A DNA stretch of 64,000 nucleotides. Origin: Dictyostelium discoideum (taxonomy: Eukaryota). The position numbers were made by a program, and so were the translations under genes. Under the pieces are notes generated by a model. That model saw nothing but the letters and a program-made list of their open reading frames with translations, searched no databases and was not told where the DNA came from. Positions 4,571-34,900 of the stretch are shown here, piece after piece; position 1 is the first letter of the stretch; the number at the start of each line of letters is the position of its first letter. The stretch lies in the NCBI GenBank assembly GCA_000004695.1, contig CM000154.2, positions 4,928,001 through 4,992,000 on the forward strand. Direction: 5' to 3'.

Positions 4571-4901
4571 TTTGTTGGTTTTATATTTGTATGTATATGT
4601 ATATTTATTTTATGGGGGTTTTTTTTTTTATTTTTTTTATATTTTATCTCTTTTGGAAGGGAAAAATTAAAAAAATAAAAAATTAAAAAAAAAATAAAAA
4701 ATAAAAAATAAAAAAAAAAAAAAAAAAAAAAAAAAAATAAAAAAAAAAAAATAAAAAAACTTTTTCTTCTAATGGAAATAGAATAAGTCGACGTAATTAG
4801 TGATTATTATGAAATTTAATAAATTAATTTTTTTTTATAATTTTTTTTTTTTTTTTTTTGTAATTGACCTTTTTTTTTTTTAATATCTTTGTTTTTTGTT
4901 G

Positions 4902-4934
<33 letters not shown>

Positions 4935-5145
4935 ACCTATTTTGGTAATTAAAAAAAAAAAAAAAAAAAAAACAAAAGATATTAAAAAAAAAAAAAGTAT
5001 GGATAAATTAGTATATAATATAATCTATTTTGTTGTTTTTTTTTTTTATTTTCTTTTCTTTTTTTTTTTTTTTAAAGCAATGTTTGATGAAGCTTGTGTT
5101 GATCAACTTATATTTTTTAAAATCATTTTTTTTTAAGCAATGTTT

Positions 5146-6191
5146 CTAAACTTTATCATCATCTGCCTGAGATTCCATCACTTCATCAATTTTATCGCCA
5201 GTGATTGAACCAGGTGGAGGTAGTGGCTTTACACACCTACCAATATCTCCATTCTCAATGTTTGGAAAGAATACTTTCTATTTTTAATAATGGTATTAGA
5301 ATTTAATGAATAAAAAGTAGTGTACAGTTTATATTTTTTAATTATTCTTATAAAACTTACGATAATTTCGGTAACATCATTATAAAATGAAGCTTGGTCA
5401 ATGTTATTAAACACTTGTATATTATTGATTGAATTCATTTTGTAATGACTAAATAGGCAAAATATAAGTTGATCAACACAAGCTTCATCAAACATCACTG
5501 AAATAGAATTACTGGTACCAATTGGAGTGATAGTACAAGGGGTATTGGTACTTGATGGTGAAAATTCAAATTTAAAATTATTTGGAGTTTGAGTCTGCTC
5601 TAAATAAACTCTATTTATATTACCACTAAGTTGGACTATTTTTTCAGTAGCTAAAGAAGAGAAATAATTATTCTTCAATACTTGTGAAACAGTGATAACA
5701 AGATTTGGATTGGAGGAAATTATCATAACAGGTTCTGAGTGTATGTCTTTTTGACTAGGAGTAACAATAAGATTTATATTTGAAATGATATTAAATTTAG
5801 CCGATGATTCATATGGACATTCGGGTGACTGTAGACATATGTGTACTTTATCTTTTACACTTGGGAAAACATCAATTGAAATGTCCTCAGTTTTATAGCC
5901 TACTGTATCAGGTTGGACAAGGAGTGGAGCATTCGTGGTTTTATAGTTTGATTGTTTTGGTTCAATAACTCTTTTTGGAAGTGGGTTTAGTGTTTGTGGT
6001 ATTAAAATTTCAAATCCCATTGGATTATCTAGATTTTGAGCGGCAAATTGATTCATTATCCAAGAAAAGTCTATTTCAGTTCCTATCGTTGATTGTGGGA
6101 CACCAAGTTTTGCAATATTATAGGTTATATCTTTTCTTATCCATGTTACATGTCTTTCCATATAATCAACTAAATATCCAATACCATCCAT
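5146..6191 (-). CDS. Hypothetical protein of about 347 aa in two exons: complement(join(5361..6191,5146..5277)). The 83-nt intron spans 5278-5360 (GTAAGT...AATAG). Function not recognised.
   Basis: The ORF-track ORF 5229..6191 reads through a canonical GTAAGT donor at 5360. Splicing to the AG at 5278 shifts the frame, which then runs cleanly to a TAG at 5146-5148. A possible AATAAA lies at 5045-5050 on the minus strand. Confidence 0.5.
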
Positions 6192-6347
6192 GCAATAAGC
6201 TCCTCCTCCTCTTGATTCTAATTATGAAGTATATCGTATCAAATGGTATATAATAATTAATTAGTTTTAATTATAGTAAAAATAATAATAAAAATAAAAT
6301 ATAATTAAAATAAAAATAAAAATAAAAATAAAAATAATTAATTATGA

Positions 6348-8260: not shown

Positions 8261-16594
<8,334 letters not shown>

Positions 16595-16640
16595 TATTTA
16601 AAACCAACAAATAAAATAATATCATTTAAAAATTCAGATA

Positions 16641-16645
<5 letters not shown>

Positions 16646-16678
<33 letters not shown>

Positions 16679-18929
16679 TTGATTAACGAGTGTTTATCCA
16701 TTTAAAGAAATAAGCAATAATTAAAAGTTTATTTATAAAAAGGATTTTACCTAAATGTTTTTTCCCTCTTTTTTTTGAAAATTTTTTTAGTTCGAGAAAT
16801 GTTATTTTGTTTTTTTAGATTTTCAAAATTTATGGGATTAAAAATTTTAATGTCTCAATAATAAAATAGTATGTTAGAATTATTATAGCTTAAATAAATT
16901 GATCAACAATTACTCTATTTAGTAAGGTTGTACTTGGTATACAGTAGTCATTGATAATTTATTTTTTAAAAATTTTAATTAGTTTGTTGTATTCCCTTTT
17001 GTTGCAAATTGAAAGTGTGTCCTCTAGTAAAAAAACTTTATTTATGTAATCCAAAGGTGTCCAGAAAATAGTTTCAACGAGGGTGGTTCAAAGACATCTG
17101 CTCATGGTTATGGAGTAGGTCAATGGAACTTTATTTATTCAGAATTAATTCAATTATTCACTGATAGGTCCATTGCGACCAAATTGTTAAAAAAAAAAAA
17201 AAAAAAAAGGAAAATCAGTTTTATAATTTTCATAACAATAATAAATTCTTTATTTGTTTAAAATTATCTCTTTATTTCTTAACATATATTTATATATATT
17301 TATAACTAATAAATTGTAATGAATTACATTGTTTAATAATCATAATATTAATAATAGTAATAATAATAAGAATAATAATGATTAACAATTAAACAATAAT
17401 AATTAAAATAATAATTAATTTATTTAGTTTTTATATATTTTAGAGTTTTCGTTCGAAACTCCTCGGCCGAAAATAACGAAAACTCGAAAATTATAAAAAC
17501 TGAAAAAAATGAAAAAAATAAAGTTAGTTTTGATTCACGCTTTACAGCATTCATATAATATTAATTGTGTGTTCCTTTATTTATTATGATCAATATTTTT
17601 TTTTTTTTTGATATAAATAAACTATTGTAGTATACAATTAGTATGTTATTTTTATTTGTTTAATTTAGGTTTTTTAGTTTTTGTGAATTTAAAATGGTAT
17701 GTTATTTTAGATTAGGTAATTAATAATTAATTGGTGGTAATTGTTGGAATTGATTCATTTGTGTTTATGCTCCATTCTTTTTTAAATTTTTTGATGGTTT
17801 CGGACCATTGGGTTTCTTTTTGAGTTTTTGTGAGGTTGTTTTTAATTGAGTATTGGTTAAAGTTTGATAAAGTTCTTGAATATTCCAATCTTATTAGCTT
17901 GTGCCATTTTGATTTTAATATATCATAATCTAGTGTTGTGTTGTTTATTTGGTTGTTCCAATTATCAATTGATTGAGTTATATTGATGTCAAATAATGAT
18001 TTGCATAACCATATCCATATTTGGTGAATAACTAATGAGATTATGTTCCAATATGCATGTGTTCTGACTAGATCAAGATTTGTGTTTATATAATTCCAGT
18101 TGAACCTGTATTTTTTATATTGTGCGTTTTCTGCAAAATGAAAATTAATATTGATAGTTGGATCTGGTTTAAATGCTTTGTTGTTTGTTTGTGGTTTATA
18201 GATGAGTGTGTATAATTTTGTTGTATGGTTTTTTGTTAGTGACCAGTTTTTGTTTCCATTGCAATTTTTATATATAAAATATTTTAATTTGTCGTGGTTA
18301 ATGAAGTTGATTGTGTGCTGACAATTGAAAAACAAATGACCATAGGGATCATTATTCATTTCATTGTTGCAAATGGGGCAAACTTTGTTGTGTAGATGAT
18401 TAATCGGAAGACATCTAGCATGGAATCTTTGCATTGTATCTCGGCCTTTTGGATCTTTTAATTTTTGAATTTTGACAAAAAGTTGGTCGTATGTGTATTT
18501 CCATAATAGTTGTATTGATTGTTGGTGCGAAGTAAGAAGTAGATCTGAATATTTCTTGCCAATATAGTCTTTTGATTTGCATTGGTGATTGTTTAGTATT
18601 GTCGAGTAGATTTCTTTGAGTGTTGGTGGTAGTGAAATATTATTTGTGTTTAATGTTTGAGAGGGTTGGTTTTTTGTTAATATTGGTTGTAGGATTTGAA
18701 CTTTATCTTTTAGATGTCCAATTTGAGTTGCATAGTTTTCCCATTCTTTTTTTATTTTTATAAGGTATGGAGAAGAGATTGATTTGTTGNNNNNNNNNNN
18801 NNNNNNNNNNNNNNNNNNNNNNNNNNNNNNNNNNNNNNNNNNNNNNNNNNNNNNNNNNNNNNNNNNNNNNNNNNNNNNNNNNNNNNNNNTATGTTGATAT
18901 TTTTGGTTATATTATGATTACTACTACTT

Positions 18930-18964
<35 letters not shown>

Positions 18965-19705
18965 TATAATGGAATTGGGTTTGGAGTGTTCGGGTTATGC
19001 CATGATGTGTTGAAGTTGATTATTAATTGGTCTCTGTTATTTAATTTGTATATTGTTTCATTCCTTTCGATCTTCTTTATTAAAATGAATTTCTCTATTT
19101 TAATTAAGTTGGTTAGTTCTTTTTCAATTAATGTTGGATCAAATGAGGGTGGAGATTTAGATTCGTCTTGATTGAATAGTTTGTGACAAATTATTCTCCA
19201 TAGTTGATGTATAATTATGCCGATTAAATTTGGGTAGATTCTTTCTTTTTTATTTGTTTTGCTAATATCTAGTGAATTGAGATCCCAATTTCTGATCTTG
19301 AAGAATGAGAGATTGTTGAATGTTGAAATTATTATGTTTTCTATTTCTTTTACTTGCATACAGTCTATAAAAAGGTGAGTGTATGGGTCACGGATTATAT
19401 TGTTACAGATTTTGCATGGTACGTTACGTTCATAGTTGATTCCAGGAAGTGACCTTGAGAAAAATCTGAATAGTGTATTTCTACCTTTTTGATGTGATAT
19501 GTGGTTGATATGTTGGAAGATGGATGGTATGTTGATGTTATTTATTGAAATTAGATTTTTTTGTCCATCTGTTTTTCTTATTGATTTGTATTTGTGAGTG
19601 ATTAACATGTTATAGATTTCTTTAAGTTGAAGTGGCTTTTTGTTTTGACCTTTGATACAATCAGGTAGTGATTTTAGTTTATTGTGTTGATTAAAAATTA
19701 ATAAA
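16646..19705 (-). mobile_element. Fragments of a tRNA-gene-targeted non-LTR retrotransposon (TRE family, TRE3-like by position) in minus orientation. Two ORF2 C-terminal segments each carry a C..C....DPY.HLF..C cysteine motif. A long 3' UTR ends in an A-tail at about 16646-16672 (poly-T on the plus strand). An assembly gap interrupts the element.
   Basis: ORFs 18964..19740 and 17727..18434 on the minus strand. Motifs PCKICNNIIRDPYTHLFIDC and CPICNNEMNNDPYGHLFFNC. The element begins within about 10 bp downstream of the tRNA-Lys 3' end. Established knowledge: Dictyostelium TRE3 elements integrate downstream of tRNA genes. Confidence 0.6.
18790..18889. other. Assembly gap: a run of exactly 100 N inside the retroelement fragments.
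   Basis: Seen directly in the sequence. A 100-N spacer is the conventional gap placeholder. Confidence 0.95.
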
Positions 19706-19709
19706 ATTT

Positions 19710-19782
19710 CGCCCAACGGGGGGCTCGAACCCCCGACCACCAGATTAAGAGTCTGGCGCTCTACCGACTGAGCTAGCCGGGC
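19710..19782 (-). tRNA. tRNA-Lys (anticodon CUU), 73 nt, no intron.
   Basis: The reverse complement of 19710-19782 is GCCCGGCTAGCTCAGTCGGTAGAGCGCCAGACTCTTAATCTGGTGGTCGGGGGTTCGAGCCCCCCGTTGGGCG. It has a 7-bp acceptor stem with two G-U pairs, a D-arm GCTC/GAGC, anticodon stem CCAGA/TCTGG with loop CTCTTAA (CTT), a T-arm GGGGG-TTCGAGC-CCCCC, and A/B-box-like internal promoter elements (TAGCTCAGTCGG, GGTTCGAGCC). Confidence 0.9.
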
Positions 19783-19829
19783 ACTTTGGTAAAAAAAATT
19801 TAATTAAGAAACAAAACATTTTAAAAGAT

Positions 19830-20101
19830 GACCCTGTAAAAAAAACTAAAAATAAAATGAGATCTAACATCTCAAGGAGAAGCAACTAATAATTGCGTTA
19901 TCCAATTCAAAAAAAAAAAAAACATTTTAAAAGACAAAAAAAAACAAACAACAACAACAATCTCTTTTTTTGATTATTTCATTTTTCATATAAAAAAGAC
20001 TTAAAAAACAAATAAATAAATAAATAAACTATTTTAAAAAGCCATCTTTTTACTTTATTGTAATTTATTATTTGATTATTTCATTTTTCATATAAAAAAG
20101 A

Positions 20102-20144
<43 letters not shown>

Positions 20145-20427
20145 GGAAATCAGAAAATTTCCAGATTTTTAACTTTTTAAAGAAAAATAAAAAAAATAGA
20201 AAGAAAATAAGATGAAAATCACAAACAACACCACAAATATTAAGCAACACAAATGCCTACAAAAAATAAGCGAAATTGTGGATAAAACTCAATTAAAAAA
20301 AAAACAATTCAAATACGTCATAAACATCAATCACGAACCAGACGATAAAATAAAAAAAGATTTAGAAAAAAGTTTGGACAAAAAAGATGTTTTAATCAAA
20401 AGTAATAATACAATTCAAAATTCGAAA

Positions 20428-20466
<39 letters not shown>

Positions 20467-20596
20467 TAAACCAACCCCTCTTTTAGAGACCCTGTAAAAA
20501 AAAAAAAATAAAATAAAATGAGATCTAGCATCTCAAGGAGAAGCAAATAATAATTGCGTTATCCAATTCAAAAAAAAAAAAAAACATTTTAAAAGA
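19830..20596 (+). repeat. Repeat cluster upstream of the tRNA. It contains a ~106-bp direct repeat (19830-19935 and 20488-20596, over 90% identical, each ending in an A-run) and an internal ~36-bp direct repeat (19971-20008 and 20073-20108). The cluster begins exactly 48 bp upstream of the tRNA 5' end.
   Basis: The copies were aligned by eye: gaccctgtaaaaaaa...aaaatgagatctaRcatctcaaggagaagcaaMtaataattgcgttatccaattcaaaaaaaaaaaaacattttaaaaga. It is consistent with remnants of a TRE5-type insertion, since TRE5 elements target about 48 bp upstream of tRNA genes, but the family is unverified. Confidence 0.5.
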
Positions 20597-20670
20597 ATTC
20601 ATTTTAAAATTTACAAGGAAAATTGTAAATTTATTGATTATTTTAACAAATATTTTTAATTAAGTTTTAA

Positions 20671-22021
20671 TTAATCTAGTTTTATAATACCTAAAACAAT
20701 TAATTGATAAAATAATTTCATAAAAGTATTTCTAAATTTTTCACCAAACCAACCAACTTCATTGGCATGCATTCTTTCAGTACTACTTCTACTAAAACCA
20801 ACAGCTTTGAAACCTCTTGATAACATTTCATTTTCATAGGATGATAATGATTCTATAATTGGTAAACCATTGATAAATATTTTTGTTAATGCATTACCAA
20901 GCTCCAATGCATCTTTAATTGCAGTATTACCACCCATACCAGCATGAGAAGTCATTGCATGAACACTATCACCGAGTAGGGTTACTCTTGAAGTTTTAAA
21001 ATTTAAAATTGGTGATGCTTGAGTTAGAGGAGTTGCATGTGAGTCTAGTAAATGTTGAGGTCCAAGATAATCATTTAATAACTTTAATACCATTGGATGA
21101 TAATTTTTAGTATCACGCCTAATTAAATTTAATAAATCTTGGCGAGTCGTTGGAATTGGATCATTTGTAACATCCTTTGGTCTCCATTCATAGCTTATCA
21201 ATAGAATCTCTGTATGATGTTGATTCTCCTCAATAACTCGTTCAATATTATCAACATCTTCAATACCTAAACTAATTGCATGTTGAATATTCTTTGTTCT
21301 ACCAAAAATAATAGTATTTCTAAAATTACCCAAAGTTTTCAAAATTGTTGAATTTTCATCACCCTGAAAGATTACATCTAAAATATCATTTGTTACATTT
21401 GGTACCAATGCTTGAATTCTAAATACATTTACATCTGCAAATTTAAAATTTGGTAATTTAAAATCACGTACACATGATCTTACACCATCAGCACCAATTA
21501 AAATTTCACCTTTTTCAATTGTACCATCTTCAAATGTTGCTATCACTTCACCATTTACATCATCCTCTATATATGATTGTAATCTTTTACCAAACTCAAC
21601 ATCAATACCTTCCATTAAAATTGATCTTAATTCTGAACGATTTACAGTTCCACCAGATTTAAATTTTAATAAAATTTCAAGGTTACGATCTGCAACTGCA
21701 AATTCACCATCTTTAAATAATTGTTTAATTTTTTCAAATTTCTCTTCACATAATGATGATTTTAATGATTCAATACCAATCTTATTTAATCCAATTAAAT
21801 AACCTTGAATTCTTGATTTTTCACTTGTATCTCTTTCAAATATTTTAAATTTAATATTTTCTCTTTTTAATATATTTGCTAATACTAATCCACCTAAACC
21901 GCCACCAATAATTAAAACTTTAATTTTTTCAATTCCTCTAAATAATAAAAAAAATTAATATATATTAATATATTTTAAAAATTTTAAAAAAATATGTTTA
22001 ACTAATTTATTACTCTTTCAT
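20671..22021 (-). CDS. FAD-dependent aromatic-ring monooxygenase (salicylate hydroxylase / UbiH-like family) of about 424 aa. Model: complement(join(21937..22021... first exon 22014..22021, second exon 20671..21937)).
   Basis: An 8-nt first exon ATGAAAGA is followed by a GTAATA...TTATTTAG intron (21938-22013). The second exon opens with the Rossmann GxGxxG IIGGGLGGL. The DG motif GADGVRS and the FAD-binding GD motif LLGDSVHAMTSHAGMGGNTAIKDALEL are present. Confidence 0.8.
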
Positions 22022-22351
22022 TATTTTTTTTCAATCTAATTATAAAAAATAACTACATTTGCTATGGAAAAAAAAAAAAAAAAAAAAAAAATTTATAATT
22101 GTATTTTATACCTTTGCTATAAAAAATAAAGTTGATACCTAATTATTATGATGATCAATCTTAATTTTAGTTAAGGTTTTTCTTTAATCCCGATACGCAA
22201 TTATTTTTCATTAAAAATAAAAAAAAATTTTGAATTTTCAAGAGGATGAAATTTTAAAAAAAATGTTATGAATAAAAAATTTAAATTAAAAAAAAAAAAT
22301 CTAAAAATAACACATAAGCAAAAATATTTTTTTTTTTTTTTTTTTTTTTTT

Positions 22352-23380
22352 TTATATTAAAATATTAAAATATTTATTTAAAAATTGTTTAGTATTATAG
22401 TTATTTTCTAAATTTACATAATTATATGCAGATGGTGTTGTTGATAATAATGAAGTGAAATCTTTTAATTGAATTTCTCTATCTTTTTTACTATTATTAA
22501 AATATATAATATAAAAACAATCATTTTCAAATAAATAATAACCTTTATCAAATAATTTAAATAAACTTATTGGTGGTATTGATAAAGATGATGATGATGA
22601 TGATGAAGAAGTTGATTGAATTGATGATGATAAATATTTACAATTTAAAATTGAAATTAATTGGTCATTTGATAAAATTAAATTTCTATTAAAATGGCAA
22701 ATCGCTTGAAAAATCGATTGATTATTTTGTTTTTGTTCATAAATAAATGAACCATCAATTAATCTTCTAACTCTATACTCTTTTTGATTGAAATTTACAA
22801 TTGAATTTGAATTTGAATTTGAATTTGTATTATTTATTAATAATTCAATTGGTTGAAAACAAGAATTTACATTTAACCCTACATCAACGAAATAATCATT
22901 TCCATCTTTCCATTGAATAATATTTGAAAAGTGTATAATACCATTTGAATTTAAAACTGTTTTAACTAATTGAACTTTAATACCAATTTCATTTAAAAAT
23001 AACCCAAAAACTATATTTAAATGTGACGAATTACCACCATTACCATCAATTATAATTTTTTTAATTATTTCTTTAATACTTGAAAAACTTTCACCATCAT
23101 TATTATAATTATTATTTATATAATTATCATCATCAATTTGATTTTGATTTTGTTGTTCTTGTTGTTGTTCTTGTTGATTTTGTTGATTATTATAATTATT
23201 ATCAAATTTATTTATTAATGGTATTTGTTGACAAAATAATAATTGGAGTTTTGAAATTTCACTTAATGATCTAATTTTAAAATGTTGAAATTCATTTTCA
23301 TTACAATTTACCATCACTCTTTTTAAAAATTGAATTTTAAAATTAAAACTAAATTTATTTTTTAAAGAACTGTAAAACAT
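22352..23380 (-). CDS. Arylamine N-acetyltransferase (NAT)-fold protein, 342 aa, single exon. Ser occupies the position of the catalytic Cys.
   Basis: GNGGNSSHLNIVFGLFLNEIGIKV aligns with NAT [23 protein letters not shown], so Cys aligns to Ser. IIHFSNIIQWKDGNDYFVDVGLN aligns with [22 protein letters not shown], conserving the His and Asp of the triad. Q/N-rich low-complexity insert near the N-terminus. Confidence 0.5.
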   Translation of the reverse strand: MFYSSLKNKFSFNFKIQFLKRVMVNCNENEFQHFKIRSLSEISKLQLLFCQQIPLINKFDNNYNNQQNQQEQQQEQQNQNQIDDDNYINNNYNNDGESFSSIKEIIKKIIIDGNGGNSSHLNIVFGLFLNEIGIKVQLVKTVLNSNGIIHFSNIIQWKDGNDYFVDVGLNVNSCFQPIELLINNTNSNSNSNSIVNFNQKEYRVRRLIDGSFIYEQKQNNQSIFQAICHFNRNLILSNDQLISILNCKYLSSSIQSTSSSSSSSSLSIPPISLFKLFDKGYYLFENDCFYIIYFNNSKKDREIQLKDFTSLLSTTPSAYNYVNLENNYNTKQFLNKYFNILI

Positions 23381-23425
23381 TTTTATATTAATTTTTATTT
23401 TTTTATTATTATTATAATATTGTAT

Positions 23426-23457
<32 letters not shown>

Positions 23458-23648
23458 TTATAATAATAATTTTAATCTAAATGATTAAATAATTAATTTT
23501 GATAATAAAAAAAAAAAATTTAAAAAAAATAAAAAAATAAATTTAAATTTAATCATTTAAATTTGGAAAAAAAAAAAAATAATAATAAATATATATGCAT
23601 TTATATTTATATAAAGAAATAATATTAAACTAGTAAAATACTTTACCC

Positions 23649-23697
<49 letters not shown>

Positions 23698-24078
23698 CAA
23701 TTGGGTGTATATACTTGTAAAAAATAGAATAAATATTACAGATATATTAACACTTTTATATCATATATGTGTGGTGTGTGGTGTTTTTTGTAAAAAACAA
23801 TTGATTATATATTTATTTATTTTTCTTTGTGGGGTTGTTCAAAAAAGAAAAAAAAAGAAAAAAAAAAAATAAAAAAAAAAAAACGGGTAAAGTAAAATAA
23901 GCAAACATATAAAACTAATATGTTTTTAATTTTAAATTTATTAATCTATTTTTATTTATTTGTTTTTATTTATCTTCTATAAAATTGGTATTATATTTTT
24001 ACTTCTTTTTTTTTTTTTTTATTTTTGTTCTATAAATTTTTTTTTTTTTATTTTTATTTTTTTCAATAACTTTTGTTA

Positions 24079-25439
24079 TTAAGATACTGGATAACCATGA
24101 TAATTTTGATTATTTAAATTATTAAGTTGATTTTGGTTATGAATAATATTGTTTTTTAATTGAGTTATTGATTCATCTACCAATTGTTGTTGATGAGATA
24201 ATTGTTGTTGATGCTGTTGTTGCTTTAATAGTTCAGCAGTATTTGAAATTGATAATGGAATGATATGATCAAGTTCTTGACGTTTTGGAATACCATTTGA
24301 AGATGATAATGGGGTGTCGACACCACCATCACCACCACTACTATTATTGTTGTTATGAGTATTTTGTGCTACATTATCAGCTCCAACATCACCATCCATA
24401 GCATTATCATCATTTGAACTTATCATAAAAGTTGATGATGGTATAATTGTATTTGATTCTCTAATAAAATGATGGTGATGTGATGAACCATTAATTAATG
24501 GAGTTGAATGATTTTCTTCATCATCATTTGCGCCACCACCACTACCACTACCACTACCCTTACCTTTTTTATTAAGTAATATTCCTCCATTATTATTATT
24601 ATTATTATTATTAAATTCTTCATTATTGCTTCCACTACCACCATTTGCTTCAATATCATCATTACAATTATTATTTTTATTAGCACCACCACTACCACTA
24701 CCACCAGTAATTTCATTTAAATCAACCTCAACATTTTCAAATGGAACGAATGGAGAACCAACTCTACTTGATAAACCACCATTTTCTCTATAAGATTTCA
24801 AATTGATTCTCATTACTAATCCGAAAATGATAGCTTGACAAATTGGAACTACGACATAAGTTGAAAAGGACATATAATCGAATGGAACATGGAATACTAA
24901 ACTAAGTATGGAAAATACACCACCAAAGAAATCCATTACAACAAAAATCATACTAAGTCCAACCTTTTCTTGATAAACTTCTAAAATTTGTGGAAAGAAT
25001 CCAACTGCCATTAAACCTGTTGCTGCAATGGTCAATATTAATTGTAAAACAAAGGAATTGGTATGCTTTGCATTCAAAATTGAATAGAGTGAAATAATTG
25101 TTGCAATCGTTACTAAAACACATAATCCTATTGTAAATAATAATCTTTTTAAATTATATTTTCTTTTTTTAAAAAAAAATAAAAAAATCAATTGTTAATT
25201 AAAATAAATAAATGAAAAATAGGGGTGGTAAATATACAAACTTACTTTTGATAAAATAAATGTTGCATGACAATTACTAAACTGAAAAGAGAAAAACATG
25301 AAATTTGAACTACAAGTGCTGGTGGTTCTCTATTAAAAACTAAATTTGTACCTAAAATAACACCACATGCATACCAACATCCAAAACATGTTGGTGATAC
25401 ACCCTTGGTTGATTTTCTTTTGTAATTTAAGTGAACTTT

Positions 25440-25470
<31 letters not shown>

Positions 25471-25631
25471 TTAGTGGTTTTTTTTTTATTTTTTTATTTT
25501 TTTTTGGTGGGGTGGAAGGGGAGTATTTATAAATAATTTAAAATTTAAAACTTACTTTGAGGAACTAATTGAACTGACCAGAGTATAGTACCTACAATTC
25601 CAAAAAGATTTGAGAGAATTTTATTTTCCAT
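24079..25631 (-). CDS. PQ-loop repeat transporter of the PQLC2/Ypq lysosomal cationic amino-acid exporter type. It has a 7TM core plus a long N/G/S/H/Q-rich C-terminal tail, about 443 aa. Model: complement(join(25556..25631,25246..25435,24079..25144)).
   Basis: Exon 1 is MENKILSNLFGIVGTILWSVQLVPQ. It joins exon 2 as VPQ|IHLNYKRKSTKGVS, which is the first PQ-loop motif. The second PQ motif FFPQILEVYQEKVGLS is in exon 3. GTAAGT donors and AG acceptors with consistent phase (1,2). Seven hydrophobic segments. Confidence 0.8.
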
Positions 25632-26388
25632 TTTTTATTTTTTTTATTTATTTTTTGTGTAGGTGTGTGATTTTGGTGAATGAATTTAATTAAATGACTG
25701 AATCAAAATGTGGATGATGTCAATTTTTTTTTTTTTTTTTTTTTGATTTTTTTTTTTTGATTTTGATTTTTTTTAGATTTTTTAAGATTTTTTAAGATTT
25801 TTTTTTATTATTATTGTGAAAGTCTTGAAATGGGAAGAAAAAAAAGTGATGGTGCGTGGTCTGGTAATCTTTTGAGTTAATTATTATTATAATTTAATAT
25901 ATATAAAAAAAAAAAAATTATTTTATTTTTTTTTAAAAAAAGTGATTTTTTTTTTTTAGGAAAAAAAAAAAAAAAAAAAGTGAAGGTAGTAGTGGTGATA
26001 AAATTTAATGCTATTATATAAATATATTTTAAATATTGTGTTTAATCACACTCTTTTGGGATAAAAGTAGAAATATCACAATCAATAATAAATCTAATTT
26101 GTGGAATTGTATAGATAAGAGGGATGATTGTATATGTCGCCAGTTTTATAATATATATAAAAACTAGTTTTATTTAGTTTAAAATGATATAATATTTGGG
26201 TTTATAATATTTGTTTTAATAATATTATAATAATAATATAATTATCTATTTATTTATTATAATTTATTGATTTTATTTATTTGTATAAAAAATAATTTTT
26301 TTTTTTTTTTTAATGATAATGACAAGAATTAATAAAAATGACGTTTTTATATGAAAAAAAAAACCAAAAAAAAAAAAAAAAAAATGTC

Positions 26389-26422
<34 letters not shown>

Positions 26423-26951
26423 AAAAAAAAATATATTTTTCACCAGGTTTCACCAAGATATTTAAATAATAAAAAAAAAAAGATAACAATTAGCGGGTAA
26501 TATATTTAAAAAAAAAAAGAAAAAAGAAAAAAAAAAGAAAAAGAAATTTAAAAATAAAAAAAATAAATAAAAAAAAAAAAAGTAGATTTAATAAAATAAA
26601 AAAAAATAAAAAAAAAAATAAAAAAATGTGTGATGATTTGAAATAAATTTTTATTTTTATTTATTTATTTTTATTTTATTTTTATTTAATTGAAATTTTA
26701 TTATAAAACCATTATAATAACATTTATTTGAATTTGTAGTATTTTTGTTTTTATATTATATTAAAATTTCATTTTAATTTTTTTTTTTTATTATTACTAT
26801 TTTAATTCGACATCATAGATTTAACTGATAAAATCAAGATATTTTTTATATTATTATTATATTATTTTTCTTATTATATTATTTTATTTTATTTTATTTT
26901 ATTTTATTTTATTTTATTTTATTTTTTAATTTTTTTTTTTTTTTATTATTA

Positions 26952-27620
26952 TTATAATTTCTTATAATTTCCAAAATTAATTTCATTTTCTAATTCTTTT
27001 AAATCTTCAGTATAATTTATCCAAACATAGCCTAATAAATCAGAAGGTAAATCATAATTTTGAGATTTACCATTATATGGAACCGATAAATAAATTACAT
27101 TTGATCTACCGAATTTTCCAATTAAATAACCAAATTCGAAAACTACATTTAATCTTGGATATGCAATTTCAACATAATCAGAATTTGAATCTTTTTTAGT
27201 AAAAGCTTTATTATCGGGTGACATTATTACAATACCAAATTTACAATTTGAAATTTCTTTCTCTAATTTTTCAATTATTGTTTGACCATTATTTGGTTTT
27301 TCAAATAATAAAATTGGTTCAAATCCCATTTCAAATAAAAATTTTGAAACTTTTTCTCTTACAATATTATTATGACCATGAACAATGAAAACTTTTATTC
27401 TTTCATTATTCCCATTACTAATACTATTATTATTATAATTATTATTATTATTATTATTAATAACACTACTATTTGTGTTTACTGTTGATACACTATTATT
27501 ATTATTATTATTATTATTTGGTATTATGTCAATTGATTTTATAATATTACTACTATTATTTAATGATATAAAAAAAATTAAAAAATAAAATAAAACTAAT
27601 AGTCTAAAAATATACTTCAT
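26952..27620 (-). CDS. Small secreted or membrane-anchored protein of 222 aa. An N-terminal signal peptide/anchor and an Asn-rich linker precede a bacterial-type TIR-like nucleotide-binding domain of the COG4271/PF10137 kind (Predicted nucleotide-binding protein containing TIR-like domain). Intronless.
   Basis: Signal peptide MKYIFRLLVLFYFLIFFISL. The domain KVFIVHGHNNIVREKVSKFLFEMGFEPILLFEKPNNGQTIIEKLEKEISNCKFGIVIMSPDNKA...RLNVVFEFGYLIGKFGRSNVIYL matches the remembered family consensus KVFIVHGHD..A...V..FLEKLGLEPIIL.EQ.N.GRTIIEKFE......FAVVLLTPDD.....R.NVIFELGYF.GKLGR.RV. Codon usage and the N-linker are host-like. Confidence 0.68.
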   Translation of the reverse strand: MKYIFRLLVLFYFLIFFISLNNSSNIIKSIDIIPNNNNNNNNSVSTVNTNSSVINNNNNNNYNNNSISNGNNERIKVFIVHGHNNIVREKVSKFLFEMGFEPILLFEKPNNGQTIIEKLEKEISNCKFGIVIMSPDNKAFTKKDSNSDYVEIAYPRLNVVFEFGYLIGKFGRSNVIYLSVPYNGKSQNYDLPSDLLGYVWINYTEDLKELENEINFGNYKKL

Positions 27621-27989
27621 TATTTAATATTAAAAAATTATGAAAAATAAGAATAATAAGAACAATAAGAAAAAAAAAAAAAAAAAAAAAAATTTTTTAA
27701 TTTTAATCAAAGGGTTAAATGGTGGAAATAAATAAAAAAAAAAAAAAAAAAAAATTAAATTTAAAAATTAAAACTTAAAAATAAAATGATGACTGTTTTA
27801 AAACAGTATTTTTGTAAATTTTTAAGAATGATTCGGGAAAAAAAAAAAAAAAAAAGATATTTTTATTTTATTTTTATTTTATTTTTATTTTATATTACAT
27901 TGGAAATTGATTAAAAAACTATTACTCTATATTTAATATATTATTATTATTATTACATGTTATTATAATTATTATTTATTTTTATTTTT

Positions 27990-29842
27990 TTAACTTTTCT
28001 TTTCTGAAGAAGCAAATATTGTACTTTTTCTAGGAGGTGGTGGATTTGATTGACTTGGAGATGATTTATTTGTAATTTTACTATTATTTTTAGTTGATGT
28101 TGTTGTTGTACTTTGTGATTTTTTATGATTTTGTGAAGAAGCAGAAGTTGTTGAAGTTGATAAAGAAGTTGAAGATGAAGAAGTTAAATTTGAAAAGAAT
28201 CCTTTACTACCACTGCTGCTGCTTTCAATAGCAGGTCTTAATGATAATACACTTGGTAAATCATCTGCTACTATGTTGTTATTATTGTTATTATTATTTT
28301 CATTATTATCTAAATCTTTCCAATCAGAAGTTGCTTTTGTCATTAATAAAGTTTTAATAAATTTCTCTTTATCAATATTTTTTAATTGAACGAAATAAAT
28401 TGATTTCTCCATAAATAGTAATATTGAATTTGTTAGATTGAAAATATCTAAAACGTCAATAACTCTAATTTTACTTGATAATGAAACATCAATGATATTC
28501 CAAATTCTATTATTTGATTTCAAACCACTTAGTATTGATTTTTGAGCCTTTTGTAATAACACTAAACAATCATTAAACGAATAGAATATTGTCTCTTTTG
28601 AAACTTTAAATTCATCTGGAAATACCCATTGTTCAGTCAATTCATCACTTGATGATTTACCACCTGATCTATATTTCTTTAATCTCTTTAATAATGAATC
28701 CTCTTCTTTTAATGGATAAATTGAATGTATAAAAAATTCACCATCTAAAATATATTTTCTACCATTTTCATGAATATTCTAATAATAAAGTGTGTGTGTG
28801 AGTGTGTGTGAGCAGCTATGTATATACATAAATATATATACATATAAGTTAATTTAATAATACTTACAACTTTATCAATTATTGTTTCTTGAAGTTGTTG
28901 AGTTTTAATTTGATTATCATCATCTCTTTTTGCTTCATTAATGAAAGAAGTAACTTCTTTAATACCTTTTAAACATTTATTTAATAATTTTACATTTGCA
29001 TGATTTGGAGGTGTCTGTTTAATTAATTCACTCAATAATAAAACATAACGTGGTAAACGTTGAACTGGCATAATCAATATTGAATTCAAATCAAGTCCAT
29101 TACATCTACTATCATTTCTACATTTTTCTAAAAAATTTGAAAAATCTTTTTTCTTTCTTAATCTCGCTAATAATGTCACTGATGCATCATATCCAATAAT
29201 ATAATTACTATACATTTTAAAATTTTCTTGCTATTTTTAAAAAATAAAAAAAAAAAAAAAAAAAAGGGGACAGGGGTAGAGCGAAGGAGTTAATAATAAT
29301 AATAATAATATTTATTTATTTATTTGATATATATATATATATAATAAACTTACATTTTTATTAAAAATATTTGTAATTGCAACAGTTGATTCCAATGAGG
29401 TGATTTCTTTTAATTTTTGAGGTTTTGAATTTGGTGATGAGAAAGTGGTTGTAGTGGTGGTAACTGTTGATAATCTATTTTGATTGGTTGTAGTTACTGT
29501 TGTTTTAGTTAGAGAATTGGGAGGTAAGATATCATTTGACCAACTGAAAGAGTTATAACAAATGGCTAACTCTGTAAAGAATTCAACATGAAATTTTAAT
29601 AAATCTTCAGTTAAGAAAATTGATTTAATATGTTCTTCTTTTATTAATGACTTATGTTGATTTCTTAATGGGTCAATATAAACCTCTTGAATCGCTGATA
29701 AATAAGTTACATAAGATTTCTCAGTTTGTATAATTTCTTCTAATATTAATTCTCTCTTTTTTTTAGTTGATTCATCTTCATCATTTTTACTATTACTACC
29801 ACCACCACTATTTGATGATGTTGTAGAATTATTATTACCCAT
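27990..29842 (-). CDS. Rho guanine-nucleotide exchange factor with a DH domain, a PH domain and a Ser/Thr-rich tail. The N-terminus MGNNNST fits an N-myristoylation consensus. Model: complement(join(29354..29842,28868..29230,27990..28778)), about 546 aa.
   Basis: DH motifs ILEEIIQTEKSYVTYL and LNSILIMPVQRLPRYVLLLSELIKQTP. The PH region is RKYILDGEFFIHS...SFNDCLVLLQK. Introns are GTAAGT...TAG with phase 0 at both junctions. Confidence 0.8.
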
Positions 29843-29986
29843 TTTTTGTATTTGAATAAAAAAAAAAAAAGTGGGAAAATAAAAAAATAAAAAAATAAAA
29901 AAATAAAAAAAAAGAATAAAAAAAAAAATCTGAAAAAAAAAAAAAAAAAAATTTAAAAAAATAAAACAAAATAAAAAATCAGATTT

Positions 29987-31180
29987 TTTTTTCAAATAAA
30001 AGAAACTTTTTTTTATTTGCACCATCAAACCTAAAAAGGTTAAAGGGTTAGAAGGTTTACACCAATATTTTTTTTTTTTTTTATTTTTTTTTATTTTTTT
30101 TTTTTTTTTTATTTTTTTTTTTTTTAATTTTTTTTTTTTTTATTTTTTTTTTTTTTAATCAATTTTGTTGTGTTGTTAGGGTCCTTGGAAAAAAAAAAAA
30201 TGAGTCGAAACCGCCACCACCACCCAGATTCTACTGAAAAACTTTTTCAATATGATAACTTAATGGAATTTGAATTTGGGAATGATTGTACAGCAGAATG
30301 TGTCAAGGAAGTAGTGGAAAGACTTGAAATGTATAAAACTGCATCAATACTTTATCAATCACTCAAAGTAAACTAAGATGGTACCTTACCTCTTTTTCAA
30401 CTTAGAGATGTGTTAAACTACAAAAGTGGTAATGATCATTTAGTTCAAAACAAAAATATTCAAGATCTCTTTACAGTCAATATTTTGGATCTTAATTTTC
30501 CTGGTACAAGAAAAAGAACAGATATCAGGCCAACAAAAAAAGAAGAAAATTAATAATAATAAAAAAAATATATATATTTTTTAAAAGATTATTACACAAA
30601 CCTACTACTGGTCGACCATGGCCTCAAATCACTTCAGGTTACATAAATAAACATATAAATAAATAAATAATTTAATTCATTGTTGAAATATAAATTTCTT
30701 TATTATTATCATTTATTAAGTTGAAATTTGAAAAGCATAATTTTAATATTGATTTGGAATAAACTCAAATTCATTTTTAATTTGTTTTTAAGTGATCAAA
30801 AGCAAACAAAAAATTGCTTAAACTGAAGTGATTAAAAAAAAAAAAAAAAAATTTTAAAAGTAATAATGTATTGATATTATAATTTTATTATGTTATGATT
30901 GTGGTGATGTTGTCTTGGTTGGGCTCTCACAGCCAATACTCATTTTATTCGATTACAAACAAATTAAAAATATAATAGTCATATCTGATTTTTTTTTCAA
31001 AATAAAAGAAGTTTTTTTTTTTATTTGCACAGTCAAACCTAAAAAGGTTAAAGGGGTTAGAAGGTTTATGGTATTTTTTTTTATTTTTTTAATTTTTTTA
31101 ATTTTTTTTATTAATTTTTTTTTTTTTTTAATCAATTTTATTGTGTTATTAAGAAAAAGGGTCCTAAGAAAAAAAAAAAA
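29987..31180 (+). repeat. A ~200-bp direct repeat in two copies (about 29987-30190 and about 30975-31180, roughly 85-90% identical outside the homopolymer tracts). The copies bracket a small ORF.
   Basis: Aligned by eye: ...caaataaaagaaRcttttttttatttgcacMRtcaaacctaaaaaggttaaaggg(g)ttagaaggttta...ttaatcaattttRttgtgttRtta...gtcct..gaaaaaaaaaa. Confidence 0.55.
30200..30432 (+). CDS. Possible small protein of about 64 aa in two exons: join(30200..30367,30406..30432). It reads MSRNRHHHPDSTEKLFQYDNLMEFEFGNDCTAECVKEVVERLEMYKTASILYQSLK|RCVKLQKW.
   Basis: The ORF-track ORF 30170..30376 is followed by a GTAAAC donor and a CTTAG acceptor, in frame to a TAA. Not recognised. It may be spurious. Confidence 0.3.
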
Positions 31181-31990
31181 AAAATTAAAAAATAAAAAAA
31201 ATAAAAATAAAAAAAAAAAAAAAAAAAGAAAAAAACAAAAAACAAAAAATAAAAAACAGAAAAAAAAGAAAAAAAAAAAAATAAAAAAAAAAAAAATTTA
31301 AGAATGATACTATTATTAATATTATTGATTTAGTTACTTGATTTTTTTTTTTTTTTTTATTTTATTTTTTTTTTTTTCTCCGGTTTTAAAAATAGTTCCT
31401 TTTTTTTTATTTTTGTAAAAAACAACTGGAAAAAATTTGATCGAAGAGTTATTAACAATCACAAAAATTTGAAAAAAAATTTAAAATTAAAAAAAAATTA
31501 AAAAAAAAAAAAAAAAGAAAAAAACCCCATTTTTAAAAATTTTTTTTTTTTTTCAACAAAATTTTTTTTTTAAAAAAAAAAAGTTATTATAATTAAAAAA
31601 GAAAAAAAAAGAAAATATTAAAAAAAATATATATATATATATTTTATATTTATTTATATTTATTTTTTTATTTATTTTTTTTTTCCAAAAATATATTTCT
31701 ATATTTAATCTGTTTTTTTTTTTTTTCTTGGGAAAATAAAAAAAAATAGAAAAAAAAAAATAGAAAAAAAAAAAAAAAAAAAAAAAAAATCAAATCAAAT
31801 CAAATCACACACAACACACATACACACATATATTTAAATAAATTGTAATAGTAAATATTAGTAAAATAAATAAATAATAATAATAATAATAATAATTGTA
31901 AAAAATTGAAATTTAATTATAATTTTTTTTTTTTTTTTATTTATTTTTTTTAAAAAGATAAATTAAAAAAAGAAAAAAAAAAAAAAAAAA

Positions 31991-34900
31991 ATGTCACAAA
32001 AACAAAAACCAATTAGATTTCAAGATTATCAATTCACAGCAACCAAAGATGAAGCATATGGTAGATCGGATAGATATGTAAAACAATTTTTAAATAAAAA
32101 TTTATTAAAGAAAAAGGATGGAACATTGGGAACTGCTGAAGAGCTATTAACATTGATTCAACAATCCAATATAAATGTTGTGACAGCATCAACGGGTGGA
32201 GCAGCAATGGGTGCAATGTTAAATCATACCGTATCAACCATTAATCTAACTGGTAGTGGTAGTGTACCAACCTATAATCCATCAGATAATAGAAATAGTG
32301 GATCACATGTAATAACAAGTACAAATAGTGTAATTAGTAATTCAAGTATAAGTAGTACTGGTGTAATAAATAATAATATAAATAATAATAGTAATATAAA
32401 TAGTAATACAGGAACGACGACAACAACAATATCATTACCAAATAATACAGAAATAAAAACAGCATTAGTTTCAACTGGTAGTCAAAATGCATCCGATACA
32501 GCACAGATTGATATAGAATTTCATTTATCGTATACACAATTGGTGACATTACCACCAAGTATATTTAGTTTAATTTGGATTCAAAAGTTGGTATTGACTC
32601 ATCATAATATAAAAACATTGAGTGAAGATATTGGAAAGTTACAACAACTTCAAGTGTTGGTATTGGAGAATAATAGATTGATCAATTTACCTCAATCAAT
32701 TGGTGACTTGGTAAATTTGAAGAGATTAGAAGTCGATAACAATCATTTGGTATCACTATGTTCATTGGAGCGATTGTCAAAACTTGAAGTCCTCTCTGTA
32801 AATAATAATAAATTAACCCTATTGCCAACTTCTATCGCTTCCCTCTCTAGTTTGAAAACTTTAAATATTAAATCAAATCCAATCATTACACCACCATCAA
32901 CTGTTGTCTCTAAAGGTTTAAAAGATATTGTATCATTTCTTCGTGAATTAGAAACTGGTGCTAGACCATGTTTAAGATCAAAATTGGTAGTTTTAGGTGA
33001 TCGTAAGTGTTTTTTCGTAAAAATAAATATTAATTTAAATCAAATGATAATTGATAATATATTAATATATGTATTTTTTAATAAAAAAAGCTGGAGTTGG
33101 TAAAACATCAGTTGTACAATGTATGAAAGGTAAAAAGAAAAAAACAAATGTAACAAGTAGTAGTATAAATATTGGTGGATCAAGTGGATCAGAAGTTGGA
33201 ATTGAAATTGATCAATATGATTTTGATGTTGTATTTGATGAAGATGATAAAAAGAGAAGAGTGATAACCTTATCAACATGGGATATCGCTAATCAAGATG
33301 TTTACTTTGCAAGTAGTCAATTGTTTGATTCAGAGAGATCAGTGTATATAGTGGTATTCAATTTGAACAATGATGATTTCTCTGCCATAGAATATTGGTT
33401 ACATTGTATCATGAGTACATCACCAAATTCACCGATTGTATTGGTGGGTACACATATTGATGCATTTGAAAATTTAAATGTTGTCAATGCGGTATTGGAG
33501 AGTGTTGCCTCGAGATTTCAAAAGAGATTCACAAATATTCAAGCCATCATCTCGGTTTCATGTACCACCGGTTACGATGTCGACAAGTTACGTCAACTCA
33601 TTGAGGACATCATAAAGACTCAACCTTATCTCAAAGAGAAAGTCCCAAGTAGTTTCTTTACACTCGAGGAGGCATTGATCGAGGTGAAAAAGAAAAGAAT
33701 TCCACCAGTGATGATGTGGCAAGAATATATCAACCTAGCAAACATTTGTAATCTTAAAGACTCTGTTCAAATTCAACGTGCCACGGAATTCCTTCACAAT
33801 ATTGGCTCCATCGTTTATTTCAATGATTTAAATTCATCAACTGTTGGTAAAATGGTGATTTTGGATCAACAATGGATCATCAATTGTATGTCCTCTTTAA
33901 TCACCTCAAAGTTACTCATAAACAATTGTAATGGTATCGTTAGACAATCCGATTTGGAATTGGTTTGGAAAGCTCCAACTTATCCTGAACATCTTCATCC
34001 AGCTTTACTCTCTATCATGCAAGCATTTGAAATTTGTCGTTCATTATCACCATCGGATCTTGTACGTCCAGAGGAGGTCAATGAAAAAGAGGTCATGGGT
34101 GATCGTAATTTAGTACCAAATCTATTATCTGACAATACAAACATTGTAGCTCAATGGGATGATTTCATCGATCCTGATACAATCTTATTGAATAGACAAT
34201 ATCATTTACCATTTTTACCAGAGAAATTCTTTGGAAAGTTAATCATTCATCTTATGAATTTTACTAAAGTTGAAAGTTGTCAAAAACGTGCCGTTATCTT
34301 AAGAAATCAAGATAATCATGAAGCTTTAATTGAATTGAAAACAATTAAAGATAATAAAGATGGTACTTTTAAAAAGATTCTAACTGTTGATGTTCGTGGT
34401 CTAGTTTCACCAGTTAGTTTATTACGTATTGTAACTGATACAATTGAATCTTTATTTTCACAATGGTACAAATTAGATATTAAAAGGTAAAAATTTAATT
34501 AATTAAAAATAATAATTTTTTTTATTTAATTATTAACATTTTTTTTTTTTTATTTTTTTAATATAGATATATAAGTTGTTATGAATGTGCAATTTTATAT
34601 GATAGAAATCCAACATTATTTACAATTGAAGAATGTGAACTTGCAGTAATTGATGGTAAAACAGTTTTAACATGTAATCAAAAGAGTGATTCAGATAGAG
34701 TTTCAACATCACATAGATTGAAATTGGATATATTGGCACCAGATATTTCAATGGTAGATATACCAATACCAAGATTTAATTTAAGCGAAGTAAAGATCAA
34801 TAAAGAGGTTGGTCGTGGTGCATTTGGTATTGTTTATGAAGCGGAATGGATGAGTGAATGGATAGCATTGAAAAAGTTATTATTACCTTCATCAACCGAT

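Follow-up and report, generated by a model that had tools for sequence, protein, structure and literature searches.

A tRNA-Lys(CUU) gene of Dictyostelium discoideum flanked by TRE5-A and TRE3-type retrotransposon sequences

The tRNA-Lys(CUU) gene described here is very probably a recurrent landing pad of tRNA-gene-targeted non-LTR retrotransposons (TREs), which is the best explanation of the locus as a whole. In the window, that is, the whole stretch of 64,000 nucleotides of D. discoideum DNA that was analysed, it is the sole tRNA gene. FAD-monooxygenase and TIG-domain genes flank the locus. Element identities, boundaries, orientation and target-site duplications were established in the analysis, as was, by way of an orthologous locus, the content of the assembly gap. 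An earlier note on this DNA had proposed that a TRE3-type element downstream and a TRE5 element about 48 bp upstream occupy one tRNA gene, and this core claim was upheld. TREs integrate via target-primed reverse transcription beside pol III transcription complexes, and a role of TFIIIB/TFIIIC at this locus is presumed from the literature. The gene and its remaining 3' flank are as follows.

19710-19782, minus strand: tRNA-Lys(CUU) gene, intact (Rfam RF00005, 66.9 bits)
19690-19709, minus strand: 20-nt remnant of the tRNA 3' flank, AAATTTTATTAATTTTTAAT (direct sequence reading)

The position and strand of the gene, as first noted, were confirmed by Rfam and by ARAGORN, whose coordinates are 19709-19783. 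In a B-box scan the internal B box GGTTCGAGCCC was found at 19721-19731 and no external B box was left at the locus. The 20-nt flank retains T-runs and is a candidate pol III terminator; it is absent from an independent copy (L007) of the neighbouring element, here called X. On the upstream side the following features were found.

19816-19828, plus strand: target-site duplication copy 1, ACATTTTAAAAGA, spanning -34 to -46 relative to the tRNA 5' end
19829-19921, plus strand: presumably younger TRE5-A insertion, 93 nt, with extreme 5' truncation, head-to-head with the tRNA
19922-19934, plus strand: target-site duplication copy 2, ACATTTTAAAAGA (13-mer count)
19935-20583, plus strand: presumably older TRE5-A insertion, an ORF-less "A-B-C" unit of 649 bp with a complete 5' end
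about 19935-20140, plus strand: A-module of the older insertion, internally deleted compared with the 199-bp unit
about 20141-20428, plus strand: B-module of the older insertion, with the ORF1 start codon at 20212
about 20429-20569, plus strand: C-module of the older insertion; the tail is A14
20584-20596, plus strand: target-site duplication copy 3, ACATTTTAAAAGA (13-mer count)

The upstream direct repeats (19830-19934 and 20488-20596), previously described as a pair of about 106 bp, are 92.7% identical across 109 bp and have no further copies within the window. By sequence comparison the repeat is the TRE5-A C-module, with 91-97% identity to TRE5-A.1/A.2 copies at their 3' ends; a repeat that matches no TRE module, as the earlier note had allowed for, is thus not what was found. 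The name TRE5-A follows from one of these copies, whose ORF2 is exactly DDB_G0269056, which dictyBase labels "TRE5-A ORF2" (PMC12405889 Table 2). The published mutated positions of the C-module, numbered from the 3' end, are T15, C26, A35 and C38 (PMC3159450), and all four match in both TRE5-A copies. The predicted C-module fold (z = -3.1) has three stems, with these positions in stems I and III, the first and the innermost one.

TRE5-A consists of an A-module of about 200 bp, a B-module of about 290 bp with the ORF1 start and a 3' C-module of about 134-137 bp (PMC3159450). At the locus these modules measure about 206, 288 and 141 bp, respectively, and their homology to the TRE5-A loci L004 and L005 is 84-97%. 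In the older insertion, the identity of the A-module to the nine L005 A units is 84-87%, that of the B-module to the L004 5' B is 96.3%, and that of B and C together to L004 and L003 is 91.6-93.6%; an 85-aa ORF matches the N-terminal 67 aa of TRE5-A ORF1 at 99% identity. The younger insertion is a stub composed of a single additional T, the 3'-terminal 79 nt of the C-module (95% identity to that of L004 and 91.6% to that of L003) and A13. TRE5-A ORF1 and ORF2 (APE-RT-ZF) are absent from both upstream copies. Since neither has a complete ORF1/ORF2, they count as defective rather than autonomous members of TRE5-A.

In the window the 13-mer ACATTTTAAAAGA has exactly three occurrences, at 19816, 19922 and 20584, against 0.09 expected, and none of 100 shuffles gave three. 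Between the three copies sit two TRE5-A insertions that share one insertion nucleotide, 46-47 bp from the tRNA 5' end. Position -46 is the last base before the insertion point, the element sequence starts at -47/-48, and the first repeat starts 47-48 nt from the tRNA 5' end, so that the canonical TRE5 distance of 48 bp suggested before agrees with the measurement and with the published integration distance of 44-54 bp upstream of tRNA genes (PMC5911963). The duplication of 13 bp falls inside the published TRE5-A range of 10-16 bp (PMC9012585). [quoted passage not shown] The "repeat footprint" of the earlier note is therefore of TRE5 origin but is more than a footprint, namely two complete insertions with a triple target-site duplication. 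The downstream side comprises the following features.

18890-19689, minus strand: proximal TRE3-type element X, 5'-truncated (TRE3-A or TRE3-C)
18967-19689, minus strand: X, last 241 codons of ORF2 (stop codon 18964-18966)
18931-18962, minus strand: X, internal A-run, a T-run on the plus strand (alignment with L007)
18890-18930, minus strand: X, 3' UTR, first 41 nt past the A-run (alignment with L007)
18790-18889, no strand: assembly gap, 100 N (4,149 bp in the orthologous locus L006)
17610-18789, minus strand: distal TRE3-B, visible 3' part (open frame and homology)
17730-18788, minus strand: TRE3-B, final 353 ORF2 codons, including the zinc knuckle (open frame)
17727-17729, minus strand: TRE3-B, ORF2 stop codon
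17610-17726, minus strand: TRE3-B, 3' UTR
17596-17609, minus strand: distal TRE3-B poly(A) tail, 14 nt (alignments to two L001 copies and the orthologous locus end here)

Both downstream elements lie on the tRNA strand downstream of the gene, as the TRE3 placement rule predicts. The two ORF2/3'-UTR fragments in tRNA orientation that had been noticed were found at 18967-19689 and 17730-18788, both on the minus strand and both with a CCHC/HC zinc knuckle. Their mutual identity is a mere 27-35%, and they belong to different families, as had been suggested; nesting, suggested alongside it, did not hold, as the elements stand in tandem. Likewise, 5' truncation, ascribed to both, applies to X but not to TRE3-B, which is full length in L006 and appears truncated because of the gap. 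The elements of the locus have poly(A) ends, APE and RT, and neither an integrase nor terminal repeats, hallmarks of the LTR or tyrosine-recombinase elements DIRS-1/Skipper/DGLT-A, were seen in them, which rules out the DIRS or Skipper class that the earlier note had named as the alternative.

The visible part of the distal element shows 99.7% identity to AX4 DDB_G0274673 and 97% to AAC27746.1. The ORF2 of its orthologous copy in L006 is 97% identical to DDB_G0291686, which dictyBase names "TRE3-B ORF2" (PMC12405889 Table 2), and on this label the distal element is TRE3-B. Assignment to TRE3-A by length (5,234 vs 5,229 bp) was considered and overturned by the same label and by a 1998 GenBank note that reads "similar to HC domain of Tdd-3 and DRE". 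Two other TRE3-B copies lie downstream of tRNA-Val genes, at 40 and 65 bp, and share the orientation of these genes. At the present locus the original distance from the tRNA is unreadable because X lies between. The element stops at the T-run 17596-17609, so the left boundary first drawn at 16646 was too far out; positions 16646-17595 of the window gave no match to the TRE copies compared and a single 77-bp match (83% identity) to an unrelated locus.

L006, the orthologous locus, comes from a gap-free assembly of another D. discoideum strain than that of the window. Positions 16387-18789 of the window correspond to L006 21029-18627 with 100% identity and positions 18890-33417 to L006 14477-1 with 99.57% identity. 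The 100-N gap, already pointed out in the earlier note, has as its counterpart 4,053 bp of TRE3-B, containing the 5' UTR, ORF1 (314 aa) and the portion of ORF2 that encodes endonuclease and RT, and 96 bp of X, containing the 3' UTR end and an A16 tail. The TRE3-B in L006 is full length (5,234 bp), with ORF1, an endonuclease-reverse-transcriptase ORF2 and an A13-14 tail; its ORF2 has matches to Exo_endo_phos (PF03372) and RVT_1 (PF00078) and a zinc knuckle. Judging from this other strain's assembly, the gap in the window probably holds the 5' part of a full-length TRE3-B.

X begins 20 nt past the tRNA 3' end, which is inside the observed TRE3 range of 14-305 bp and outside the usual one of 40-150 bp (PMC5006619 Table 1). 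It is 99.4% identical at the nucleotide level to the L007 copy, the homology beginning at 19689, and the 3' UTR is common to both until A16-18 and divergent beyond. X corresponds to aa 859-1099 of the 1099-aa ORF2 DDB_G0269266 and thus keeps just the zinc-knuckle end, whereas the ORF2s of the family are 1099-1149 aa long and contain the RT. The family copy in L007 follows another tRNA in the same orientation, no more than 59 nt downstream, and a D. firmibasis relative is located 55-79 nt downstream of a tRNA. An exact look-up identified the X ORF with DDB_G0291069/DDB_G0279773, of a 14-member D. discoideum cluster; this refuted the idea of a family missing from D. discoideum, which had arisen because a homologue search gave sister-species proteins only (58% identity at most). 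The T-run 18931-18962 was also considered as the X tail, with the next 137 bp as target DNA; in the alignment with L007 this stretch is X's own 3' UTR.

The upstream repeats might also have arisen by local duplication or unequal recombination of one TRE5-A insertion, with no second integration. The C-module copies and the right-hand 13-mers do lie in the same orientation, 661 bp apart. However, the tRNA-proximal copy is flanked on both sides by the 13-mer, as expected of a separate insertion, and the C copies differ by about 7%, yet each is 95-97% identical to C-modules elsewhere. In addition, L005 shows the same tandem TRE5-A arrangement with its own target-site duplication, and re-targeting of occupied tRNA genes, by which tandems form, has been observed (PMC5391098; PMC5006619 Table S2 note), in the former case experimentally. 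Such a duplication is therefore highly improbable. With two integrations, an A/B/C-only TRE5-A derivative would have inserted first, 46-47 bp upstream with its 5' end toward the tRNA, duplicating 13 bp of target; a later TRE5-A would have inserted at the identical nucleotide and duplicated the same 13 bp once more, its reverse transcription aborting after about 80 nt to leave the C-module stem-loop region and the poly(A). Whether the first insertion arrived as a derivative is a separate point. It is quite conceivable, at somewhat under an even chance, that the A-B-C unit is a former full TRE5-A.1 (AB-ORF1-ORF2-BC) whose interior was lost in place via B-B recombination. TRE5-A.1 has two B-modules in direct orientation (PMC3159450; also L004), the unit has a complete 5' end, one B-module and intact target-site duplications, and at the BC junction it shows the undeleted A.1 type. 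Loss in place is at odds with an A-module that has an internal deletion of about 90 bp and whose identity to standard A units is just 84-87%. In 1992 DRE was reportedly described with a "BC.ABC" form that recurs and has a "slightly altered A module", which would suggest that ABC units propagate as such.

On the downstream side, the poly(A) tail of X (A16) touches the exact first nucleotide of TRE3-B with no target DNA between them in the alignments with L007 and L006, and this first nucleotide was set independently by the L001 copy. Most likely, the full-length TRE3-B inserted first in tRNA orientation, and the 5'-truncated X inserted later, primed at the TRE3-B boundary, while the target DNA in between was lost. 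Target-site deletions are known at 5'-truncated TRE5-A insertions (PMC3159450). The same junction would be produced if X and TRE3-B were a single two-family chimeric insertion made by an end-to-end template jump of the TRE3 reverse transcriptase: the enzyme at the 5' end of the TRE3-B RNA would jump to the poly(A) of the X RNA and copy about 890 nt, and the composite cDNA would be joined 20 nt downstream of the tRNA. The direct abutment and the lack of a target-site duplication at X fit such a jump, as does the other TRE3-B tandem (L001), where a 68-bp spacer indicates that zero spacing is not the rule. A search for target-site duplications, successful for TRE5-A, gave none for X or for TRE3-B, just weak AT-rich similarity, and nothing convincing around the composite, which speaks against a single event; without one at X, its integration site cannot be reconstructed. 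The identity to the nearest compared copies, 99.4% for X and 96.3-98.75% for TRE3-B, weakly fits a younger X, and no report of template jumps for TREs was found in the literature consulted. A chimeric insertion is thus unlikely, and later insertion of X at the TRE3-B boundary is preferred.

The locus is ordinary for D. discoideum, in which 61% of tRNA genes have a TRE and 13% have both TRE5 and TRE3, and both tandem TRE hits and double TRE5/TRE3 occupancy have been published. It is a clean teaching example, in which a triple target-site duplication reveals that TRE5-A integrated twice at one and the same nucleotide. Of the two insertions, the smaller keeps just the C-module region that is known to be essential for retrotransposition; a text search of the literature for the C-module sequence strings gave no match. 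There is also a practical caution: a gap of 100 N masks 4.1 kb, and a seemingly truncated element is full length with open reading frames.

The locus shares with TRE5-A (DRE), forms A.1/A.2, the A/B/C modules, the C-module 3' stem-loop, the oligo(A) tail, a 13-bp duplication within the published range, a position 46-47 bp upstream with the 5' end tRNA-facing, and tandem re-targeting of one site. Unlike TRE5-A, both copies here lack ORF1/ORF2, the A-B-C unit has only one B-module and has lost part of its A-module, and the younger copy has just about 80 nt of the C-module. The L006 copy resembles TRE3-B in length (5,234 bp vs the 5,279-bp consensus; PMC5006619 Table 1), in ORF1, the APE-RT-zinc-knuckle ORF2 and poly(A), and in tRNA orientation; it differs in that the frame linking ORF1 and ORF2 is broken by a stop shortly before the first ATG of ORF2, for which a mutation or a homopolymer error in the assembly may be responsible.

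As in TRE3-A (Tdd-3) and TRE3-C, the ORF2 C-terminus of X belongs to the TRE clade and includes a zinc knuckle, and the distance of X from the tRNA, 20 nt, is within the observed 14-228 bp (TRE3-A) and 14-305 bp (TRE3-C). The TRE3-B ORF2 core exceeds that of X by about 210 aa. The RT domain of X's family is equally far from TRE3-B (46%) and TRE5-A (46%), and X, which appears to be TRE3-A or TRE3-C, therefore leans towards TRE3-C; a search of papers for the gene identifiers gave no match. Finally, the X/TRE3-B junction resembles the template-switch chimeras of L1/R2 type in that a poly(A) is joined precisely to an intact 5' end with no target DNA between, and differs in that sequential insertion with target-site deletion explains the same junction.

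Both ARAGORN and Rfam place a tRNA-Lys(CUU) gene on the minus strand, the sole tRNA that either finds in the window (G+C, ~22%). The other elements described in the earlier note are also present: an assembly gap, an upstream direct-repeat pair and, on the minus strand, two C-terminal pieces of ORF2 carrying a zinc knuckle. The proteins encoded by the window's repeats share 97-100% identity with proteins of D. discoideum AX4. The assembly also has a lone N at 43703.

Features around the tRNA gene (window positions)
18790-18889: 100-N gap
19710-19782, minus strand: tRNA-Lys(CUU)
19830-19934 and 20488-20596: direct repeats, 92.7% identical, found nowhere else in the window
19931-20141: 84-87% identical to A-module units of L005
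20107-20423: 96.3% identical to the 5' B-module of L004
20086-20580: 91.6-93.6% identical to the 3' B+C modules of L004 and L003

The D. discoideum reference loci come from another assembly, GCA_054883475.1. In L004 the element is complete: its ORF1 encodes 444 aa, and its RT-containing ORF2, of 1047 aa, is an exact match to DDB_G0269056, which is 'TRE5-A ORF2' in dictyBase naming (PMC12405889 Table 2). L005 carries the TRE5-A.2 form without ORF2, headed by nine tandem 199-bp A-modules. The target-site duplication (TSD) search proposed earlier revealed exactly three copies of the 13-mer ACATTTTAAAAGA in the 64 kb (starts 19816, 19922 and 20584; expected, 0.09), and none of the shuffles gave three. 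The copies bracket two TRE5-A units, the pattern left when one target is entered twice through an identical staggered cut.

The distal, presumably older unit (19935-20583) is, from its module identities, ORF1 N-terminus and matching first bases, an ORF-less A-B-C derivative of TRE5-A with complete ends. Its opening bases, C(A)9CAAACAACAACAACAATCTC, match those that begin the A-module nearest the tRNA in L005, and its A-module has an internal deletion of roughly 90 bp. An 85-aa ORF at 20212 shows 99% identity to TRE5-A ORF1 over the latter's first 67 residues and diverges beyond, as expected where the B-module passes into the C-module; at the BC junction the unit has the undeleted A.1 form, in contrast to L005. 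The proximal, presumably younger unit (19829-19921) holds the final 79 nt of the C-module, preceded by one extra T and followed by A13. A TRE5 at the canonical upstream distance is thus borne out: insertion was after -46 relative to the tRNA (published span, 44-54 bp; PMC5911963), the units are head-to-head with the tRNA as published (PMC5391098), and the 13-bp TSD is inside the published 10-16 bp (PMC9012585). Re-targeting of occupied tRNA genes and formation of TRE tandems are documented (PMC5391098; PMC5006619 Table S2 note). L005 has an equivalent tandem architecture: at 4505-6194 in this second strain, the nine-A-module copy precedes an older A-module variant that shares its target site, and the locus has a TSD of its own, TTCCTATGGAATAC.

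Siol et al. 2011 (PMC3159450) mutated C38/A35 (stem I) and C26/T15 (stem III), numbered from the element 3' end. Both window C-module copies have exactly these bases, and the fold predicted for them comprises three stems, the two pairs of positions falling in the first and the innermost one. This agreement is independent support for C-module identity. A more divergent C-module in L001 is 3 nt shorter over the stem-loop region, matching the difference between the published folds of TRE5-A (54 nt) and TRE5-C (51 nt) (PMC3159450). This TRE5-C-like 3' end (L001 17605-18083; C-module 79-85% identical to the window copies) has no B-module and lies upstream of a tRNA-Val(AAC) gene that also has a TRE3-B 65 bp downstream.

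The gap-free orthologous locus L006 was found through an exact protein match of the neighbouring 342-aa gene (window 22352-23380). Since window 16387-18789 aligns with L006 21029-18627 at 100% identity and 18890-33417 with L006 14477-1 at 99.57%, the gap corresponds to 4,149 bp. The distal downstream element is whole in L006 (5,234 bp plus A13), with a 314-aa ORF1 and an ORF2 carrying Exo_endo_phos and RVT_1 domains. It begins CTGTTATATCTTCACC, and a second copy, in L001, has the same start after unrelated flank. The ORF2 of the L006 element shares 97% identity with DDB_G0291686, 'TRE3-B ORF2' in dictyBase (PMC12405889 Table 2). For the window fragment, identity is likewise 97% to AAC27746.1, which its 1998 submitter called no more than 'similar to' Tdd-3. 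Two more TRE3-B copies lie downstream of tRNA-Val genes, at distances of 40 and 65 bp, and share their orientation. On these sequence comparisons, we identify the distal element as an untruncated TRE3-B. At L006 15425-15871, a -1 frame overlapping the ORF1 end is open for ~148 codons; its stop, just ahead of the first ATG of ORF2 in the next frame, may reflect either a genuine frameshift mutation or a homopolymer error of the long-read assembly.

The TRE3-B tail is the T-run 17596-17609, and 16646-17595 matches no fetched TRE copy, so the span previously drawn from 16646 began too far out. An intergenic perfect hairpin (17444-17486; 11-bp stem, GAGTTTTCGTT...AACGAAAACTC; fold z-score -3.2), which is not a B box, lies ~110 nt past this tail. 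Further out, 77 bp (17056-17132) are 83% identical to L001 13348-13424, inside a YqaJ-domain gene model, and are shortly followed by an A20 run (17189-17208); together they may be a small piece of another repeat. Elsewhere in the window, a 222-aa minus-strand ORF (26952-27620), also called in L006 (5780-6448), strongly matches the CAP12/Pycsar-effector TIR domain (PF10137, E = 4.6e-37), a bacterial-defence-type domain here in an amoeba genome.

The element beside the tRNA, X, has an independent copy in L007, with which it shares 99.4% identity. Because homology begins at 19689, X starts 20 nt past the tRNA and leaves the terminator T-runs intact. Of the two downstream elements said to be 5'-truncated, X is so, whereas TRE3-B is not. 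X corresponds to residues 859-1099 of DDB_G0269266, a 1099-aa RT-containing ORF2; its window ORF is annotated in AX4 as DDB_G0291069/DDB_G0279773. X is TRE3-type by behaviour, since the L007 copy lies <=59 nt downstream of an intron-containing tRNA and a 65% identical D. firmibasis relative 55-79 nt downstream of a tRNA. A DIRS or Skipper identity, the contrary outcome named in the earlier note, is ruled out by poly(A) tails and APE-RT ORF2s. The two downstream elements belong to different families, as the earlier note suggested. Across the full ORF2, X has 35% identity to TRE3-B and 32% to TRE5-A. Its RT domain is equally distant from both (46% each) and its ORF2 core falls ~210 aa short of the TRE3-B core; these features lean towards TRE3-C (consensus 4,734 bp, RT placement reported ambiguous; PMC5006619), with TRE3-A the alternative.

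Alignment of L006 with L007 indicates that the A-run after the X stop codon is internal: X extends 121 nt further to A16-18, where the two loci diverge. In L006 the next base is TRE3-B base 1. X and TRE3-B thus adjoin end to end, contrary to the suggested nested insertions, with no target DNA between them in L006 and no TSD of X found at the locus. Our preferred reading is that X inserted later, primed at the TRE3-B boundary, and that the intervening target was lost; deletions of this kind are known at 5'-truncated TRE5-A insertions (PMC3159450). The zero-spacer join without a TSD would also suit a one-step chimera of X and TRE3-B produced by template jumping, which we consider unlikely.

What this analysis chiefly adds is the triple TSD and the A-B-C unit upstream, the actual sequence content of the gap, revised element boundaries and a zero-spacer junction that is so far unexplained. 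With TRE5-A upstream and TRE3-B and X downstream, both tRNA-targeting strategies have indeed met at one tRNA gene. In D. discoideum, 61% of tRNA genes have a TRE and 13% have both kinds, and tandem TREs are explicitly noted (PMC5006619 Table S2). All features of the locus fit published TRE biology, and the original finding is correct and ordinary.
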